From Candidatus Poseidoniaceae archaeon (GTDB lineage Archaea > Thermoplasmatota > Poseidoniia > Poseidoniales > Poseidoniaceae), in assembly GCA_029250385.1 (NCBI GenBank), contig JAQXFJ010000217.1, forward strand, positions 1 to 27,657: a DNA stretch of 27,657 bases. The letters run 5' to 3'. The position numbers and the translations under genes were made by a program. Numbering within the stretch: the first letter of the stretch is position 1; every line of letters begins with the position of its first letter. The notes under the pieces were generated by a model, which worked only from the letters and a program-made list of their open reading frames with translations, was not told the origin of the DNA and did no database searches. Positions 6,100-27,493 of the stretch are shown one piece after another.

Positions 6100-6783
6100 A
6101 TGGTCTTCCAACCGGAGTTGCGCTTGCACTTGGGAGCTGAGGCTGAAGTGTGGTCTGGGACGTGGATGGGTCGGCCTGCAATCAAGAAGATGCGTCGTAA
6201 TAGGGCATGGCGTCACCCAGATATTGAACGCCGCCTTGGCTACCGAAGGATGCTTAGTGAAGTTCGTATTTTAATCAGGATTCACAATACGGGGATGCCA
6301 GTTCCTGCAGTATGGGATGTTGATTTAGATAATGGCCGAATAATAATGCAAAAAATGCAAGGAAAACCATTAATTGAGGTGTTACGAGATGAAGACTCGA
6401 ATTCTGAGTTTATCAAAACAGCACTAGAAAATTCGGGAAAGGCGGTTAGGATGTTGCACAGGATGGCAATCACTCATGGGGACCTATCGACCAACAATAT
6501 TTTAATCGACGAGAACGCCAATGCATACTTAATTGATTTTGGCCTGTCGGCAGTAGAATATGAAGTTGAACGGTTTGGTATTGACTTACATGTAATGGAT
6601 GAGATACTTGGGGCATCTCACCCAAATATTGCCAATGGTATTGAGAATTTCATTAATGGATATTTACAGTGGGATGGTAATCAAGGGCCATTAACGGAAC
6701 TTTCTGGTGGTACACCGCCGACTGCAAAAGCAGTGTTGAAACGTTTAGATGATGTACGTTCAAGGGTTAGGTATCACGGATGA
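6100..6783 (+). CDS. bud32: KEOPS kinase/ATPase Bud32 (stand-alone), 227 aa
   Basis: GAEAEV, K.R..RAWRHP, E..IL, HGDLSTNNIL, IDFGL, and the DL.V and RGRY-like (RVRYHG) C-terminal motifs. Confidence 0.92.
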   Translation: MVFQPELRLHLGAEAEVWSGTWMGRPAIKKMRRNRAWRHPDIERRLGYRRMLSEVRILIRIHNTGMPVPAVWDVDLDNGRIIMQKMQGKPLIEVLRDEDSNSEFIKTALENSGKAVRMLHRMAITHGDLSTNNILIDENANAYLIDFGLSAVEYEVERFGIDLHVMDEILGASHPNIANGIENFINGYLQWDGNQGPLTELSGGTPPTAKAVLKRLDDVRSRVRYHG

Positions 6784-6784
6784 T

Positions 6785-7198
6785 TTAACCGACTAACAAA
6801 CGCATTTCTTCTACACTTCTTAATTCCGACAAATAAATCTGTTCGATAGCATCTCGAAGGTCTTCTTCAGCATTGTCTTCGATTAACTCAATTAGTTCTG
6901 CATAAACTTCTGCAGCTTTTATTTCGGTTTCCAGTGAATAATTTAACATTTCCAAGTAGTCATTAGTGTGAGTTATTGGGTGCGAGTTTCTTTCTGTCAC
7001 TGGTATCCCACCAAGCTGTACAATTGCCTTTCTGACTATGTCTGCGTGTTGGATAGACTCAGTCATTTCTACGTTAAACATCGGAGACAACTGTAATCTG
7101 TGTATTCCTTTGATGTTCGCTGCGTAATGCGCATACATGTTACTGGCTCTTAGTTCCCAACTTAGGGCGATATTCATCTTATTTATCAGGTCACTCAT
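6785..7198 (-). CDS. ferritin-like (bacterioferritin-related) four-helix protein, 137 aa
   Basis: ELRASNMY, EMTESIQHAD, QLGGIP, LETEIKAAEVY and a final E-rich helix. Confidence 0.8.
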   Translation of the reverse strand: MSDLINKMNIALSWELRASNMYAHYAANIKGIHRLQLSPMFNVEMTESIQHADIVRKAIVQLGGIPVTERNSHPITHTNDYLEMLNYSLETEIKAAEVYAELIELIEDNAEEDLRDAIEQIYLSELRSVEEMRLLVG

Positions 7199-7209
7199 TG
7201 TCTCAACTC

Positions 7210-7225
7210 TTTAGGGTGCACTAAA
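7210..7225. promoter_or_regulatory. candidate DtxR/MntR-family operator TTTAG-N6-CTAAA
   Basis: TTTAGGGTGCACTAAA (6 of 8 positions self-complementary), 12-27 bp upstream of the ferritin-like start codon. Confidence 0.5.
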
Positions 7226-7289
7226 CTTTTCCGTGGCTCCGTACACGGATATACCTATGATTCTGCATTAATAAACTAATGTAGTGATT

Positions 7290-7676
7290 TTAGATATTTT
7301 CCATTCGTTCGCCAATTTCCCATCCGAGAAATGCTCCGATTATGCAGACTGAAAAAGTTAGCATGATGTATGCCAGAGCGGTAAAATGTTCGTCAGTTTT
7401 AATCAATTTCATAGTTTCTACTGAAAATGTTGACATTGTGGTAAATGCTCCAAGTAGTCCAGTGCTAAAAAATAGCATTAACTCTTCTGATGAACCTCGG
7501 TTTACGGCATAGACTGTAATCGCTCCAAGTAATACAGAACCAAGTGCATTAACAATAAATGTCGACCATGGAAAGTCTGTAGAATCAAGTAACTGCCCTA
7601 CTGCGAAACGTAATGCGGCCCCGATGGCACCGCCCAAAGATACAATTGCAATATGTTGAAGCATGATTTTTTCCAA
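7290..7676 (-). CDS. crcB: fluoride channel CrcB/Fluc
   Basis: GGAIGAALR, NALGS and TGLLGAFTTMSTFSVE motifs. Start TTG 7676 or ATG 7664. Confidence 0.93.
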   Translation of the reverse strand: MEKIMLQHIAIVSLGGAIGAALRFAVGQLLDSTDFPWSTFIVNALGSVLLGAITVYAVNRGSSEELMLFFSTGLLGAFTTMSTFSVETMKLIKTDEHFTALAYIMLTFSVCIIGAFLGWEIGERMENI

Positions 7677-10093: not shown

Positions 10094-10936
10094 TCAACTA
10101 TCACGCCAATTTGGCTTAGTTCTTGCCATGAATGACTTAACGCCCTCCACCTTGTCATCACTATCGAATAACTTGGCAAATTCGTCTGCTTCTATTGCTA
10201 CACCTTCATCTAATGAATTATTCAACGAAGCTCTGATCGTTCTTTTGGCTGCTTTGGCAATGAATACTGATTTACTAGCAATCACATTCGCCATAGTCAT
10301 GGTAATGTCATATAATTCTTCATTAGCACAGACTTGGTTAATCAGCCCAATTTTTTCTGCTTCTTCAGCACTAATCATCTCACCTGTCATAATCAATTCG
10401 AGGGTTTTTCCATAACCGATTAACTTACTCAATCGTTGTGTTGCTCCATATCCAGGTATCAATCCCAAATTTATCTCAGGGGTGCCAAACTTAGACCGCT
10501 TCGAGGCGATTCTAATGTCGCATGAACAAGCGACTTCACAGCCTCCGCCCAAGGCAAATCCATCAATCATAGCAATGCTTGGTTTGGTTAAATTCCAAAT
10601 TGCCTCCACCGCATTATCGGTAAATTTTATTTTGGCAGCCTTGGAATCCATATCGACAAATTCAGAAATATCTGCGCCTGCAACAAAGGCGTTTGGTTTA
10701 GGTCGCTTCCCTTCAGTGGGTTGTAATGGTTTTGCTCCAGTAATTACAACACACCTTATACTGGTATCTGCTTCTGCCCAATCGCAGAAATTTTTCAGTG
10801 CATCCATCACTTCAGAATTGAGGGCGTTCAATTTATTTGGCCGATTTATGGTTGCTAATGCGATAAAACCGTTAAGTTCTTCCTCGCTTACTGCTACCTG
10901 TTCAATTGATAAAACATTGGATATAGGGGCGTCCAT
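10094..10936 (-). CDS. enoyl-CoA hydratase (crotonase), 280 aa
   Basis: INRPNKLNALN, AFVAGADI, GFALGGGCE and PEINLGLIPGYGATQRL; both catalytic Glu present. ATG 10936; the track's extension overlaps the ABC gene. Confidence 0.92.
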   Translation of the reverse strand: MDAPISNVLSIEQVAVSEEELNGFIALATINRPNKLNALNSEVMDALKNFCDWAEADTSIRCVVITGAKPLQPTEGKRPKPNAFVAGADISEFVDMDSKAAKIKFTDNAVEAIWNLTKPSIAMIDGFALGGGCEVACSCDIRIASKRSKFGTPEINLGLIPGYGATQRLSKLIGYGKTLELIMTGEMISAEEAEKIGLINQVCANEELYDITMTMANVIASKSVFIAKAAKRTIRASLNNSLDEGVAIEADEFAKLFDSDDKVEGVKSFMARTKPNWRDS

Positions 10937-20093: not shown

Positions 20094-21530
20094 ATGAGCG
20101 AAGAAGAGATGTATATCGCAGGCGAGTGGACTAGTTCTGAAAATGGCGATTATAGCGAAGCAATAAACCCCGCAACAGGTGAAACTATTACACGAGTTCC
20201 AAAAGCGTCAGTAAATGATGTAAACCGTTGTGTTTCAGCATCCAGGGATGCTTTAGTTAGTTCTGAATGGAAGAACATTGATCCTGCACAACGAGGTAGA
20301 ATTCTCAATAAAATGGCAGCAGCTACTTATGGTGCAGCAAAAGAATTAGCCCAAATAGAATCTGAAAATAATGGGAAAACCTTTCGTGAAGCTCTATCAG
20401 AAATAAGATATGGTGCATGGACATTAGAGTACTTTGCGGGCCTTTCAGACAAAATTGAAGGCTCAACAATACCAGTTCCAGGTAATCGTCTAAATTACAC
20501 ACTTCGCCAACCACTTGGCGTAACCGCACACATTGTCCCGTGGAATTTCCCTCTCCAACTAGCTCTTCGTTCCATAGCTCCAGCATTAGCCTCCGGCTGT
20601 ACAGTAATCGCTAAGCCTGCATCATGGACTCCACTTTCTCTGTTAGCATGGATGAAGAAAATGGAAGAAGCCGATGTAGGCCTGCCAACTGGTGTTTTGC
20701 AAGTAATAACCGGTTCTGGAGGCTTGATTGGTGACGCTCTTGCAGGACACCCAGGCGTGGATGGAGTGGTACTGACTGGGGGTGTGCCAACAGGTAGGAC
20801 TGTAATGGCAAAAGCTAGTGATAATCTGACACCGGTTACTCTTGAACTTGGAGGGAAGGGGGCCAATATTGTATTCCCAGATGCGAATTTAAAATATGCC
20901 GCTAAAGCAATTTGTTTTGGTATTTTCATGAATGCCGGACAAATGTGCTGGGCAGGTTCTAGATTGATTGTCCATGAAGAGGTTCACGATGAATTAGTAG
21001 ATGCGGTCGTTGCTGAAGTGAGTAAATGGAAGGTCGGGCCAGGAATGGCTGAAGGTGTGCGTATCGGCAGCCTAGTACACACTAGCCACAGGAGTGAAGT
21101 GCTAGAAAAATTAGCTTTGGGTCTCTCTCAAGGCGGCAAGATTGTTTGTGGTGGTAATGCAGTAGATGGAGAAGGTGCTTTTATGGAAGCAACCGTTGTA
21201 ACTGGAATTGGAGCAGATAACTCATTATTCAATGATGAATTATTTGGCCCGGTTCTATCTGTAACCAAATTTTCGACAGAAGCAGAGGCATTAGAACTTG
21301 CTAATCATTCTGATTTTGGTTTACTAAATGGGATTTGGACCAACAATCTAAGCCGAGCTCACAAACTCGCTAGAGATTTAGAATCAGGAATGATTTCAAT
21401 TAATGAATACCCAATTACCTTCCCACAAACTGCGTTTACTGGATGGAAGAAATCTGGTATTGGAATAGAGCAAAGCAAGGATGCTCTAAGATTCTACACC
21501 AAGGTAAAGAATGTTAACATCAAACTTTGA
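20094..21530 (+). CDS. NAD(P)-dependent aldehyde dehydrogenase, 478 aa
   Basis: PWNFP, KPAS, LELGGK (catalytic Glu), NAGQMC (catalytic Cys), ELFGP and K.SGIG motifs. Confidence 0.95.
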   Translation: MSEEEMYIAGEWTSSENGDYSEAINPATGETITRVPKASVNDVNRCVSASRDALVSSEWKNIDPAQRGRILNKMAAATYGAAKELAQIESENNGKTFREALSEIRYGAWTLEYFAGLSDKIEGSTIPVPGNRLNYTLRQPLGVTAHIVPWNFPLQLALRSIAPALASGCTVIAKPASWTPLSLLAWMKKMEEADVGLPTGVLQVITGSGGLIGDALAGHPGVDGVVLTGGVPTGRTVMAKASDNLTPVTLELGGKGANIVFPDANLKYAAKAICFGIFMNAGQMCWAGSRLIVHEEVHDELVDAVVAEVSKWKVGPGMAEGVRIGSLVHTSHRSEVLEKLALGLSQGGKIVCGGNAVDGEGAFMEATVVTGIGADNSLFNDELFGPVLSVTKFSTEAEALELANHSDFGLLNGIWTNNLSRAHKLARDLESGMISINEYPITFPQTAFTGWKKSGIGIEQSKDALRFYTKVKNVNIKL

Positions 21531-21539
21531 GGTGAGATT

Positions 21540-22322
21540 ATGAGTGTTTCATTCAGCGATATGGGCCATGGAGTTCGCTTGATTCAGTTTTCTGGCCAGT
21601 CCGCAACACAATCATTTTCAAGAACTTTTTTGCCTAAAATCGCCAAAGCCATAGATGATGGATTAACCAACACAAGCGTTCGGGCAATGGTATTAACGGG
21701 TGAGGGCAAATTTTTCTCTGCTGGTGCAGATATCAACGCCTTTGCTAAGGCAATTGAAGACGGGGATGCTCCTCAATTAATTCGAGATCTTACTGGAGTG
21801 CTCCATCCTTTACTTGTACGAATGCGCCAATCACCTACCATTTGTGTGGCGGCTCTCAACGGCGCATGTGCAGGAGGCGGACTTGGTCTAGCCTTGGCAT
21901 GTGATGTGCGAATTGGCTCACCTAGTGCCAAGATGGCTGCTTCTTACTCTGGCATGGGCCTTTCGCCTGATGGTGGAACAACATGGTTGCTGCCTCGCTT
22001 GGTCGGTGACCAAATCGCAAGACGATTTTTCTTTGAAAATGAAATTTGGTCAGCTGAAAAAGCTAATCAATTAGGGGCAATCGATACTATTGTCGAACAA
22101 GATTCTCTCCTTGATTCTGCTCTAGAAATTGCACTCAAATGGTCCCAGTGGGGTAATCATACCAAAGAGGCAACTAAGCATCTACTAGATGTTCAATCTG
22201 TGCAAGATTTCGAGACTCATCTAAAACATGAACGTACATTGATTGAAGCAGCGGGAACTACTGATGCCTTCAAAGAAGGCGTAACGGCATTTATTGAAAA
22301 GCGTAAACCACACTTTGAGTAA
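21540..22322 (+). CDS. crotonase-fold isomerase, PaaG-like, 260 aa
   Basis: FSAGADI, NGACAGGGLGLALACD and GLSPDGGTTWLLPRLVG. Lacks both crotonase Glu and has Asp at the PaaG catalytic position. Confidence 0.8.
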   Translation: MSVSFSDMGHGVRLIQFSGQSATQSFSRTFLPKIAKAIDDGLTNTSVRAMVLTGEGKFFSAGADINAFAKAIEDGDAPQLIRDLTGVLHPLLVRMRQSPTICVAALNGACAGGGLGLALACDVRIGSPSAKMAASYSGMGLSPDGGTTWLLPRLVGDQIARRFFFENEIWSAEKANQLGAIDTIVEQDSLLDSALEIALKWSQWGNHTKEATKHLLDVQSVQDFETHLKHERTLIEAAGTTDAFKEGVTAFIEKRKPHFE

Positions 22323-23210
22323 TCACTCTGGAAGTTGGCACTCTTCTGCTTCGCCAGAGGACCAATCATAGATTCCCATACTAGTTTTTTTGCCAAGGCG
22401 ACCAGAGGCAACTAGTTTTTCCATTAATGGGTGAGGTGCGTATGAATCATCATCAAATGATTTCTGTAGATTTTTTAGAATATCTCTTCTAACATCCAAT
22501 CCAACTAAATCGGTTAGAGCTAACGGGCCCATCGGGTGTTTGTAACCTAACACCATCGCAGTGTCGATATCTTTTGCGCTTGCAACTCCGTCTGCAAGCA
22601 TTCGAATTGCCTCATTTCCTAACACAACTCCTAATCTAGATGTAGCGAATCCTGGAATGTTATTTACTAAAATTGTGGTTTTATTCATTTGCATACCTGC
22701 TTGTTGAGCGATTTCAATAGTCTTCTGTGAACATAAATCGTGTCTAACTAACTCTAACAATTTCATTATCGGTACGGGATTAAAAAAATGCATACCGATG
22801 ACTCTTTCTGGACATCCTGAGGCAGTGGCTAAATCGGCAATTGAAAGAGATGATGTGTTAGTTGCTAGTATGCAACTTTGATTGGTGTATTTTCCTAGTT
22901 GCTCAAAGATTTGAGATTTTAATTTTGGAATCTCTGGTACTGCTTCAATAACTAAATCAGCTTGTTTTACCGCTGCTTTCATATCGGTAAATTGGGTTAT
23001 GTTTTGTGACCAATCTTGTTTTTGTTGCTGAGTTGTTTTCCCTCTTGCAATCCCCTTTTCCCAAAATGAATCAATAGTTTTCATACCCTTTTCTAAGCTC
23101 TCTGGAAAAGCATCAAACAGGTTAGTTTGCCATCCACTTTGAGCACAAACCTGGGCAATACCTGCCCCCATTGTTCCAGCGCCAATAACAGTCACGGTCT
23201 TAATCGACAT
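22323..23210 (-). CDS. 3-hydroxyacyl-CoA dehydrogenase (PaaH/Hbd-like), 295 aa
   Basis: GAGTMGAGIAQ, EAVPE, ATNTSSLSI, GMHFFNP, GYKHPMGPL and GRLGKK motifs. Confidence 0.94.
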   Translation of the reverse strand: MSIKTVTVIGAGTMGAGIAQVCAQSGWQTNLFDAFPESLEKGMKTIDSFWEKGIARGKTTQQQKQDWSQNITQFTDMKAAVKQADLVIEAVPEIPKLKSQIFEQLGKYTNQSCILATNTSSLSIADLATASGCPERVIGMHFFNPVPIMKLLELVRHDLCSQKTIEIAQQAGMQMNKTTILVNNIPGFATSRLGVVLGNEAIRMLADGVASAKDIDTAMVLGYKHPMGPLALTDLVGLDVRRDILKNLQKSFDDDSYAPHPLMEKLVASGRLGKKTSMGIYDWSSGEAEECQLPE

Positions 23211-23232: not shown

Positions 23233-24156
23233 TCATGATGCTTGCTTGTCGTTTTTGCTTTTTGACTGAGCGATAAAAACTCCACCTGTGATAAGAACGA
23301 AAGCAAACGCCAATGACAATCCAAGTTTTTCGTCAAGCAATAGATATCCTCCCAAGATTCCAAACGGCGGGACTAGATAAACATACAAAGCACTCATCGA
23401 GGCACCTATTTTGATTATACCATCAGCGAACCACACATACGCAACAACGGTAGAAAAGATTGCTAGAAACACTATTCCAATCCAGCCATCTGGACTTGGC
23501 CAAATAAATCCTTGTGTAACAGTTTCAACAGCCATTATCGGGGTCAATAATATCAGACCCGCTACAGATGACCAGACGGTTAATTCTAGCGGATTTAATG
23601 GCTTAGTGGAATTTTGTTTAGGTTCAGTCATGGTTTTCTTCATTAAAATCGTGTTACAAGCCCATGCAAGGGCTGCACCTGCAATCAGCAAGTCCCCAAT
23701 AGCACGATCCACAAAGTCTATGTCCACATTGGGTGAGTAGTAAAATAATATTCCAACTCCGGTAATTCCCATTAATAATCCAGTGATTAAATTCCGATGC
23801 ATACTTTCCTTAAGGAATATAACTGCTAATATTGCAGTAAAAATAGGATTGAAGGTAATCATGAGTGAAGCATCACCAGCTGCGGTATATTGCATTCCAA
23901 ACATGAAGAATGCTTGATAGACACAAGTTGAGAAAAACCCGATCAGAAATAATATCTTCCACTCTGATTTATTTGGAAACATCCACTGCCTTGAAAATTT
24001 AAGATAAGCCAAAAAGCAGAATGTGGCTATGATATAACGAATCCAAGCGGCGGTAAAAGGTAGAACATCATTGGCTACAACTCTGCCTGCCGGCCAACCA
24101 AATCCCCATATTACTGCAACTGTAAACAATTTTAAGTGAGTTGCTAAATTACTCAT
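23233..24156 (-). CDS. EamA/DMT-family transporter, 307 aa
   Basis: Ten TMs in two repeats; IWG..W, G.QYT.AG.AS, PIFTA.LA..FL.E and LLDEKL motifs. Confidence 0.9.
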   Translation of the reverse strand: MSNLATHLKLFTVAVIWGFGWPAGRVVANDVLPFTAAWIRYIIATFCFLAYLKFSRQWMFPNKSEWKILFLIGFFSTCVYQAFFMFGMQYTAAGDASLMITFNPIFTAILAVIFLKESMHRNLITGLLMGITGVGILFYYSPNVDIDFVDRAIGDLLIAGAALAWACNTILMKKTMTEPKQNSTKPLNPLELTVWSSVAGLILLTPIMAVETVTQGFIWPSPDGWIGIVFLAIFSTVVAYVWFADGIIKIGASMSALYVYLVPPFGILGGYLLLDEKLGLSLAFAFVLITGGVFIAQSKSKNDKQAS

Positions 24157-24710
24157 TCAAACCGCTCCAAACCTAATTGGAGCATTCTTGATCGAGGTAA
24201 GCCTATTTCTGGTAATCCTTTCGCCGGAGCATACATCTTGAGTCCTTCGATGCGCGAGACGTATAAGCCATAACTAGCCATGTCTCCTAGATTGAACGGG
24301 GTTTCTAGTCCCAAATCTGTCAGCGCTTGACAGGCTTTTTCACTGTAGATGGGGTACAGGTTAGTGGAAAAATGCATCCATTCAGAAATTCGCTGAGTGT
24401 CTATTTCGTCAATAGTAAGCAAATGTTCTAGCAGGGCCACATCCGGGTAAGAAACAGTTCGAATAATCATTTCAATCTCATTGACTATTTCTTCTGGGAA
24501 GGCAAAGGGCTTTCGGTTTGACCATTCTTCTGCGACCTGAATGTGTTCCATAGATGCCTTGTCTTGTATGGCAAACAAAGTTTTGGAGTAATCTTCGTCA
24601 TCGATACTATCAGCGACTAAAGTGGGTAATTGTTCATAGAAATTTTCACATCTTTCGACGTTGATACCGTACAGCGAGACTGGGATCATTTGACCACCGT
24701 AAAGATTCAA
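24153..24710 (-). CDS. hypothetical protein, possibly a degenerate HhH-like fold, 178-185 aa
   Basis: 4-bp overlaps with boxB (TTG 24710) and eamA (ATGA). Alternative ATG 24689 has a GGTGG SD. Motif ISEWMHFSTNLYPIYSEKACQAL. Confidence 0.7.
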   Translation of the reverse strand: MNLYGGQMIPVSLYGINVERCENFYEQLPTLVADSIDDEDYSKTLFAIQDKASMEHIQVAEEWSNRKPFAFPEEIVNEIEMIIRTVSYPDVALLEHLLTIDEIDTQRISEWMHFSTNLYPIYSEKACQALTDLGLETPFNLGDMASYGLYVSRIEGLKMYAPAKGLPEIGLPRSRMLQLGLERFE

Positions 24711-25920: not shown

Positions 25921-26532
25921 CTATATAATTTCGTCATAAAATGTGTCCACTATTTTACTTTCGATAGCATGAAGCATAACTGAGATTGTAGATTTGGAGG
26001 AACTGGTAATTTCAGCCAACTGGGTGATTGAAATTTCTCTAGGTATGTTCCAATATCCTTTGCGTTTGGCCAATTCAAAAATCTGTGTTTGTCTTGTAGT
26101 TAGTAGCTTATCATTGCTTGAGCGAGTTGACTTCAAACGCATCGGTATCTCGTCTGAATTTATTTCCTCGATTAATTGTTTAGCTTGACTGGGAGAACAC
26201 TGTATTGTCCAGTCAGCCCATCCATCTATCACTTCAAAAGGAGTTCTTGGGACCACACCAACAACGCGCAAGGCTTTGATAAATCCACCACCTCCACTGG
26301 CTATTGTCACTGTAGCCTTGTTAACGTCAAGTAAATTGACGGACTCCACGCCAGATAAATGCTCTAATTGGTTTAGTAATAGTTCATCAGTACTAATTTG
26401 AGCTGTCCCTCTCCCCTTGCCAAGAGGCATGGTTTCGATTATCTGCAATGTGGATGATGGACTTTCACGAGTAGCTTCGCCAGCCCAATGTCCATCCGGT
26501 AATCGAACTTCAATTCTTACCACTTGGGACAT
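25921..26532 (-). CDS. Bat-like (HTH_10) archaeal transcription regulator, 203 aa
   Basis: C-terminal LTTRQ.QI..LA...GYWNIPREISITQLAE...SSKSTIS..L..IESKI matches HTH_10. ATG 26532 avoids overlap with glpX (alternative 26559). Confidence 0.88.
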   Translation of the reverse strand: MSQVVRIEVRLPDGHWAGEATRESPSSTLQIIETMPLGKGRGTAQISTDELLLNQLEHLSGVESVNLLDVNKATVTIASGGGGFIKALRVVGVVPRTPFEVIDGWADWTIQCSPSQAKQLIEEINSDEIPMRLKSTRSSNDKLLTTRQTQIFELAKRKGYWNIPREISITQLAEITSSSKSTISVMLHAIESKIVDTFYDEII

Positions 26533-26536
26533 ATAA

Positions 26537-27493
26537 TCACTTTTTGTGAATACGGTCATGCCTTGTCAAAGTGCCTGCTTGTACGTCAATTAGTTCTGCA
26601 TAGGTGTGCATATCGCCGTTTTCAAAAATTTTCACACCCGGTAGGTAGCCATCACAAACTCCAGAGGCGACAAAAATCGCGTCATCTGAGCGACATAAAT
26701 CTTTAGCATCCCAAAGCCTGGTTAAATCATCATCTATCATTTGTTCGGCACGCGCTTCTTCTTCATCAGATCTAAACACTAATCGCCCTTCAAAAACACC
26801 ACCGATTCCGCGTAGTGCAGTGGCAGTGATTACTCCTTCAGGTGCAGCTCCAATTCCCAGTAACATGTCATGTTCACCATCTGGTCTTGCAGCCCAAAGT
26901 GCAGCCGAGATGTCACCGTCTCCAAGTAGGTGGAGTTGTGCTCCAACTTGTTTAATCTCCTTGAATAAGTCAGTATGGCGCTTTCTATCAAGTGCAATAA
27001 TACGAACTTCTTCAATTGGTTTGTCTAGCACAGATGCGACTTGTTCGATGTTGTATGCAACCCCTGCATCAAGATTAATGTGGCCTTCCATTTCTGGCCC
27101 TGCGGCAATTTTGTCCATGTAGCAATCAGGAGCGTGGAGCAGAGTGCCTCTTGGTGCTGCTGCTAGAACTGCAATTGAATTTGGTAAGTTATCTGCACAA
27201 TTATTTGTACATTCTAGCGGGTCGACAGCTATGTCGATAGCCGGTACTAGTGGGTTGCCTATTTCTGAACCAAGTTGTTCACCGATAAAGAGCATCGGCG
27301 CTTCGTCCCTTTCACCTTCACCAATGGCGACTCGACCATCGAATGGGACTTTGTCAAACGTACTGCGCATTGCTTCTACAGCCGCATCATCAGCAGCCAT
27401 TTTGTCGCCTTTACCGCGCCATTTTGCACTTGCTATTGCGGCCATGTCCACGGCGTCGAGAAAGTGGTCAGATAGGTCCGATACTGTGCCCAT
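26537..27493 (-). CDS. glpX: class II fructose-1,6-bisphosphatase GlpX, 318 aa
   Basis: GKGDKMAADDAAVEAMR, GEGERDEAPML, DIAVDPLE, DR.RH, DGD and GIGAAPEGVITA motifs. Confidence 0.93.
   Translation of the reverse strand: MGTVSDLSDHFLDAVDMAAIASAKWRGKGDKMAADDAAVEAMRSTFDKVPFDGRVAIGEGERDEAPMLFIGEQLGSEIGNPLVPAIDIAVDPLECTNNCADNLPNSIAVLAAAPRGTLLHAPDCYMDKIAAGPEMEGHINLDAGVAYNIEQVASVLDKPIEEVRIIALDRKRHTDLFKEIKQVGAQLHLLGDGDISAALWAARPDGEHDMLLGIGAAPEGVITATALRGIGGVFEGRLVFRSDEEEARAEQMIDDDLTRLWDAKDLCRSDDAIFVASGVCDGYLPGVKIFENGDMHTYAELIDVQAGTLTRHDRIHKK

Follow-up and report, generated by a model that had tools for sequence, protein, structure and literature searches.

The described systems closest to the locus reported here are the Box and Paa routes. 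BoxC activity is confined to the N-terminal domain of the protein and BoxC has been reported to co-purify with BoxB, which in its classical form does not accept phenylacetyl-CoA (PMC4498308). Seven benzoyl-orienting residues of BoxB have been named (PMC5489048), and the product of BoxD is 3,4-dehydroadipyl-CoA (PMC6449761). In PaaG of Thermus thermophilus, the catalytic residue is Asp136, the main-chain amides of Gln61 and Ala105 form the oxyanion hole, and a Tyr80 lid keeps water from the active site; PaaG-type enzymes isomerise cis-3,4-didehydroadipoyl-CoA (PMC7497051). A further crotonase family, NF046063 (H281DRAFT_04594), also lacks the catalytic Glu residues, and its opening of oxepin-CoA has been proposed from fitness data (PMC9007349). 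Among Archaea, a 2026 survey reported paa pathways in Halobacteria only (PMC13186573).

We analysed positions 1 to 27,657 of contig JAQXFJ010000217.1 from a Candidatus Poseidoniaceae archaeon (assembly GCA_029250385.1), a stretch of 27,657 nucleotides hereafter called the window (Table 1). The gene of interest is an ATG-started ORF whose product matches Pfam ECH_1 (E 2e-46) and has the AlphaFold model of a normal crotonase (pLDDT 86.6). It carries the motifs GGGLG (residues 112-116), SYSGMG (135-140), and GLSPDGG (140-146). In alignments with PaaF and other hydratases, the two hydratase Glu sites correspond to G116 and Y136, while D144 aligns with D144 of Escherichia coli PaaG (31% identity) and with Asp136 of the T. 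thermophilus enzyme (6SLB). Among the 83 distinct orthologues, D144, G116, L88, H89, and E231 are invariant wherever they are covered (80-81 sequences per site), and site 136 is Y or F. The initial annotation had pointed out that this crotonase lacks the hydratase Glu pair and has the Asp of GLSPDGG, and that the other crotonase of the window is of the conventional two-Glu type; the alignments bear out both observations, the two Glu of the latter being visible there. The oxyanion-hole sites are A63 and G113; model residues 137-141 have pLDDT below 50, and the backbone contacts are unreadable from the sequence. Structure searches with this protein and with the BoxC relative described below did not separate subfamilies. 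The best PDB match of the former is the uncharacterised PA4980, and an ESM Atlas search returned generic ECH clusters only. On its own, the protein is an ordinary single-Asp crotonase, and it is the context that counts.

Table 1. Features of the window and of the contig that continues it
Feature	Position	Strand	Basis or context
Two-Glu enoyl-CoA hydratase, possible PaaF-like role	10094..10936	-	adjoins the cluster aldehyde dehydrogenase gene in several family-f3 genomes
NAD(P)-dependent aldehyde dehydrogenase (ALDH), candidate BoxD-equivalent semialdehyde dehydrogenase	20094..21530	+	9 bp upstream of the single-Asp crotonase gene; below every NCBIfam cut-off
Single-Asp (D144) crotonase, 260 aa, predicted Δ3→Δ2 enoyl-CoA isomerase	21540..22322	+	motifs, alignments, orthologues
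3-hydroxyacyl-CoA dehydrogenase, PaaH N-terminal-like	22323..23210	-	abuts the single-Asp crotonase gene tail to tail; 21/21 compared loci
EamA/DMT transporter	23233..24156	-	10/21 compared loci
~180-aa acidic protein, no known family	24153..24710	-	downstream of boxB-like gene, 21/21 Poseidoniales loci; also in G246
Short BoxB-like diiron oxygenase, 386 aa	24707..25867	-	six iron ligands, most BoxB benzoyl-pocket residues
HTH_10 regulator	25921..26559	-	upstream of boxB-like gene
Window end, joins contig C329 of the same genome	27646..27657		collinear alignment on relative G090
Single-domain BoxC relative, 288 aa	C329:2122-2988 (locus L163)		~2.1 kb past window end, ~3.9 kb from boxB-like gene; contig join via G090

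The enzyme had been called a PaaG-type isomerase. The single-Asp type and its conservation near a BoxB-like oxygenase stand; membership in PaaG does not. The protein resembles PaaG in being a single-domain crotonase of about 260 aa with Asp at the same site, and in having an ALDH, a hydratase, and a 3-hydroxyacyl-CoA dehydrogenase encoded nearby. It differs from it in scoring 151 bits against the PaaG model TIGR02280 (cut-off 345), in its invariant His89, and in having Leu for the lid residue Tyr80 in either alignment register (L84 or L88). A haloarchaeal crotonase from a paa cluster is also without the YN motif, and Tyr80-type lids may not be universal in PaaG-type enzymes. The best NCBIfam match is NF046063 (alternative oxepin-CoA hydrolase), with 172 bits against a cut-off of 300, and several unnamed families score about equally. 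Since GLSPDGG, together with an LH motif, is also found in crotonases outside paa clusters, such as Cupriavidus CNE_RS37360, the Asp motif is not diagnostic of PaaG; PDB 4JFC has both motifs as well. The context differs too, the partner oxygenase being BoxB-like. PaaB, PaaC, PaaD, PaaE, and PaaK have no match in the same genome (75% complete), no paaZ was found, PaaK (TIGR02155) is above cut-off in none of 61 relatives, and no second PaaG able to form oxepin-CoA was found in the genomes examined.

In a tree of 50 sequences, the orthologues make a clade of their own (support 100/99) within the Asp-type group, set apart from the clade of E. coli, Roseateles, and Saprospira PaaG, and among the sequences sampled their closest kin belong to ordinary beta-oxidation clusters. 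Uniting them with PaaG in the strict sense is rejected (p-AU 0.006), a wider union with PaaG is not (p-AU 0.34), and a union with BoxC is rejected (p-AU 0.011). The enzyme probably works like PaaG, yet fails PaaG membership.

The initial annotation also saw this gene in the place expected for BoxC, as if standing in for it. The first holds for position only, and the second is not supported. The two proteins have only the crotonase fold in common: BoxC has two crotonase domains, about 550 aa, and two active-site Glu, whereas the protein studied here has half that length, lacks the Glu pair, and scores 21 bits against the BoxC model TIGR03222 (cut-off 712). A distance of 2.4 kb separates its gene from the boxB-like gene, which is read from the other strand; the neighbour of boxB in many relatives is a BoxC relative. 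In the present genome the latter is found just past the end of the window. The end of the window contig (C347) and the start of contig C329 are collinear on a single contig of the relative G090, with an overlap of about 9 bp and 94% DNA identity. The notion that there is no BoxC here was dropped because this next contig carries the single-domain relative. Residues E137 and E158 of this protein align with the Glu pair of BoxC and are invariant in 12 orthologues. It is the best TIGR03222 match of the genome (75 bits, E 3e-21), far below the cut-off; the generic hydratase has 21 bits. It is 35% identical to Mycetohabitans BoxC over 167 aa, with a common stretch around an invariant Cys, and in the 50-sequence tree, where BoxC sits on a long branch, it forms a clade (100/99) with two BoxC N-domains and crotonases of benzoate-CoA-ligase clusters from Thermus and Haladaptatus.

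The association with boxB is recurrent. An orthologue of the BoxC relative is present in 61 of 61 near-complete genomes; its gene lies about 70-230 bp from boxB in 9 of 20 compared loci, is directly upstream of boxB in the second large family of the order, and adjoins short boxB in other Thermoplasmatota. Among bacteria, orthologues (56-60% identity) occur in two genomes that have short boxB. A plain sequence search scores the protein higher against generic hydratases and the uncharacterised Geobacillus GK1992 than against 2W3P. The latter is absent among the best 50 structure matches listed, which carries no weight, and a homologue search with a Thermoplasmata sequence returned near-copies only. 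GK1992 (2PPY) is also the closest solved structure and ranks first in VIA-align (Z 28.3, rmsd 1.9, 222 aligned); many crotonases score equally, and the fold does not tell them apart. A complex of the BoxB-like protein and the BoxC relative was predicted with a score of 0.60, against 0.00 for the best control (partner pLDDT 93; runs agree in 100% of contacts). The pass mark is reached by 51 of 78 solved pairs and 2 of 108 mismatched pairs, and passing scores of 0.60 or less include only 5 of the 78 solved pairs but all 4 passing mismatches. The prediction gives weak support to such a complex; the single-Asp crotonase was not part of it, so it does not show which crotonase binds. A version with one domain is plausible, given that BoxC is active in its N-terminal domain only and is recovered together with BoxB on purification. 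On sequence grounds, we class the protein as a BoxC relative and not as a BoxC member, since it has no second crotonase domain and misses the cut-off.

Two other genes were observed on this contig. One of them, which in each of the two large families immediately precedes the gene of the BoxC relative and reads in the same direction (L163:753-2081; L077:11685-12971), encodes a flavoprotein like the geranylgeranyl-reductase family; it has no NCBIfam match at 1e-8 and has neighbours resembling moaE, moaC, and glpX. Two genes downstream of the BoxC relative is the large subunit of a Rieske oxygenase (L163:3941-4990), whose best NCBIfam match, GbcA, is far below cut-off.

The oxygenase itself is about 90 aa shorter than BoxB and scores 220 bits against TIGR03225 (cut-off 499). 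The six iron ligands are all retained, as are Q116, T119, S123, F193, and F203 among the seven residues that orient the benzoyl group. The remaining two have changed, F206 to Y in its own family and T210 to V or I (Val here), the change at T210 being a PaaA-like state. It also keeps the DTE..S and DR signature of BoxB, which PaaA lacks and which PaaA-like proteins of benzoate-ligase clusters share. These data do not support the suggestion of a phenylacetyl-CoA-like substrate, as the oxygenase pocket has the signature of BoxB and not that of PaaA and the Asp motif occurs outside paa clusters. Moreover, the Box route gives 3,4-dehydroadipyl-CoA, the cis form of which is isomerised by PaaG-type enzymes, so a single-Asp enzyme is useful on a benzoyl-CoA route too and alone does not point to phenylacetate. 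A genus that lost the crotonase gene has kept boxB and the BoxC relative (see below), which also speaks against that substrate.

Our reading, a tentative one that we consider quite possible, is that the enzyme serves a compact Box-type route as Δ3→Δ2 isomerase, acting on cis-3,4-didehydroadipyl-CoA once the ring has been opened. We favour it because D144 corresponds to Asp136 of PaaG, the hydratase Glu are missing, PaaG-type enzymes do this isomerisation, and a BoxC relative is present. The short diiron enzyme would convert a benzoyl-type CoA ester to the epoxide, the BoxC relative would open the ring with Glu137 and Glu158, and the ALDH would oxidise the semialdehyde to cis-3,4-didehydroadipyl-CoA. 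The single-Asp crotonase would then shift the double bond to position 2,3, with D144 moving a proton from C2 to C4 via a thioester enolate held by backbone amides (Δ3-cis to Δ2-trans), and the two-Glu hydratase, the 3-hydroxyacyl-CoA dehydrogenase, and a thiolase may complete the route. Residues, gene content, synteny, trees, and co-occurrence are the observations from which we infer every one of these activities and the substrate. The cluster would resemble the aerobic benzoyl-CoA pathway BoxABCD (Azoarcus evansii; boxCBA locus of Mycetohabitans) in its BoxB-type diiron site and pocket, BoxC-type ring-opening domain, ALDH, and beta-oxidation enzymes. It differs from it in the shorter BoxB, the single-domain BoxC, the lack of a BoxA above cut-off and of a benzoate-CoA ligase, the extra separate single-Asp isomerase, and the conserved ~180-aa protein, which has no Pfam or NCBIfam match.

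Several observations count against the Box-type reading. No source of benzoyl-CoA was found: benzoate-CoA ligase is above cut-off in none of 61 genomes, and family III CoA-transferases are patchy (17 of 31). Phenylpyruvate, which the universal E1 (21 of 21 genomes) or ferredoxin-type 2-oxoacid oxidoreductases could turn into phenylacetyl-CoA, is a more obvious entry for protein-eating cells. The changes at F206 and T210, the low TIGR03222 score of the BoxC relative and its higher plain-search scores against generic hydratases, the beta-oxidation relatives of the crotonase, and the size of the tree (50 sequences) may be added to these. Other searches for aromatic substrates gave little: kynureninase is present in only 1 of 31 genomes, IorA in none of 31, and phenylalanine hydroxylase and HPPD in none of 5 near-complete genomes, which showed no further route for Phe or Tyr. 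The aromatic ammonia-lyase is probably a histidase, its gene following a urocanase-like gene. Bacterial short boxB genes (reached through representatives) mostly stand alone, and their neighbourhoods hold no substrate clue. BoxA has no match above cut-off in 5 genomes. The best match to its model in all 5 is a CysJ/P450-reductase-like FAD-NADPH module without flavodoxin domain (L226:1420-2703; in the present genome C10, about 6700-7425), a candidate electron donor to the BoxB-like enzyme.

The distribution of the crotonase gene bears on its role. It lies 1.6-8.4 kb from boxB in 18 of 20 loci, in two families and despite rearrangements, and follows the ALDH gene in most of them. The ALDH of the window has orthologues in 94 of 99 genomes of its own family, and family f3 has a different ALDH at the same place (37% identity, opposite orientation; L063:6147-7598), which suggests replacement in position between families. 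In the genus g17, the crotonase gene is present in none of 9 genomes. Three contiguous loci of this genus lack it and keep the hydratase, ALDH, dehydrogenase, ~180-aa protein, boxB, and BoxC relative, and a profile search found no substitute of the same type. FadB-like multifunctional enzymes can provide Δ3→Δ2 activity, and g17 genomes have one. The gene thus seems dispensable, since g17 lacks it and the FadB-like enzyme there could take over the isomerisation. The orthologue follows the ALDH gene in G246 and G218, far from boxB. G246 and three other Thermoplasmatota have an Asp crotonase from a separate clade next to short boxB; the latter crotonases group with the haloarchaeal paa-cluster crotonase (98/95). 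The route thus seems to benefit from an Asp isomerase, irrespective of the clade it comes from.

Two other patterns of loss were considered and rejected. An apparent loss in g4 (gene present in 2 of 11) is an assembly artefact, as the contigs stop right after the ALDH gene and one stops inside the crotonase gene; the argument from loss is therefore drawn from g17 alone. The ALDH and the crotonase are not a fixed pair that is lost together, since the ALDH is still present in g17 and is a different one in each of the two families.

A rather unlikely alternative repairs the route drawn in the initial annotation. The BoxB-like enzyme would epoxidise phenylacetyl-CoA derived from phenylalanine, the single-Asp crotonase would be a true PaaG that turns the epoxide into oxepin-CoA and later isomerises the C6 intermediate, the BoxC relative would hydrolyse oxepin-CoA, and the ALDH would replace the dehydrogenase half of PaaZ. 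Searches brought up neither PaaK nor a benzoate ligase; the CoA ester is therefore probably formed by the cell itself, in keeping with phenylpyruvate decarboxylation by E1, and without phenylalanine hydroxylase or HPPD in the near-complete genomes another Phe route is needed. The plasmid matches are mostly PaaG proteins, the wider PaaG clade is not rejected, a paa-cluster enzyme groups in the tree with the Asp crotonases that adjoin short boxB in other Thermoplasmatota, and HPPD adjoins boxB in G246. Against this, classical BoxB refuses phenylacetyl-CoA and the pocket signature here is that of BoxB, while the Leu in place of Tyr80, the TIGR02280 score, and the rejection of the strict PaaG clade argue against a true PaaG. 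The closest annotated plasmid relatives of the BoxC-like partner sit with genes of the benzoate-CoA ligase family. The absence from g17 also disfavours this role, although modestly, as the PaaG step would be obligatory there and the absence reflects one loss event.

The enzyme might instead act on unsaturated fatty acyl-CoA as a general auxiliary Δ3→Δ2 isomerase, encoded in an acyl-CoA gene neighbourhood and without a specific part in ring degradation, a reading that we likewise find improbable. Its tree neighbours from beta-oxidation clusters, the same GLSPDGG and LH motifs in CNE_RS37360, and the best PDB match to the uncharacterised PA4980 are in line with it, as are the separation from boxB in G246 and G218 and the loss in g17. 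Against it stand the persistent proximity to boxB across two families and the separate lineages in which short boxB has an Asp crotonase from a different clade as neighbour. Finally, an alternative oxepin-CoA hydrolase forming a split PaaZ with the adjacent ALDH is very improbable: the best HMM match to NF046063, the absence of catalytic Glu, the stand-alone ALDH nearby that the gene follows in most loci, and the motifs of 4JFC speak for it, but the 172 bits are far below 300 and only 21 above the PaaG score, the PaaABCE/PaaG context of that family is absent, its activity is itself proposed from fitness data only, a two-Glu ring-opening candidate is already present, and the genomes examined yielded no further PaaG that could form oxepin-CoA.

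Returning to the compact Box-type reading, the cluster and the BoxC relative together offer candidates for ring attack, ring opening, aldehyde oxidation, isomerisation, hydration, and dehydrogenation. The cluster is near-universal in Poseidoniales: among 201 genomes, the boxB-like gene is found in 196, the BoxC relative in 198, and the single-Asp crotonase in 178. Annotation misses it because every HMM cut-off fails, and we found no published description of it in the literature searched. It is a candidate variant of the Box pathway and, if active, would give the uncultured, protein-eating Marine Group II archaea an oxygen-dependent means to break aromatic rings. Should the less probable hybrid route starting from phenylalanine be the true one, it would amount to an undescribed combination of Box and Paa chemistry, a minimal phenylalanine degradation with a one-subunit BoxB-type epoxidase, a PaaG-like isomerase that is not orthologous to PaaG, and a single-domain BoxC relative as oxepin-CoA hydrolase, across almost the whole of a highly abundant order of marine archaea.

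A few minor observations concern related loci. The g4 assemblies break repeatedly just after the ALDH gene (G030:C7, G126:C8, and G122:C63, loci L237-L239), and this breakpoint may mark a variable or repeated region. In G246, HPPD and a fumarylacetoacetate-hydrolase-like gene adjoin the boxB-like cluster (L200:11147-13566), making an aromatic amino acid island. Two other Thermoplasmatota encode still shorter BoxB-like proteins of about 260-275 aa (L209:4380-5204 and L210:9104-9883), the genes of which adjoin a BoxC relative, or a dehydrogenase and a thiolase. Lastly, Thermus thermophilus plasmid pTF24b (L178) and a Haladaptatus plasmid (L177) carry PaaABCD-like epoxidase genes in clusters that also hold a gene of the benzoate-CoA ligase family and a BoxC relative of one domain. 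The PaaA of these clusters has BoxB-like pocket residues, and they are possibly benzoyl-CoA routes assembled from Paa-type parts.
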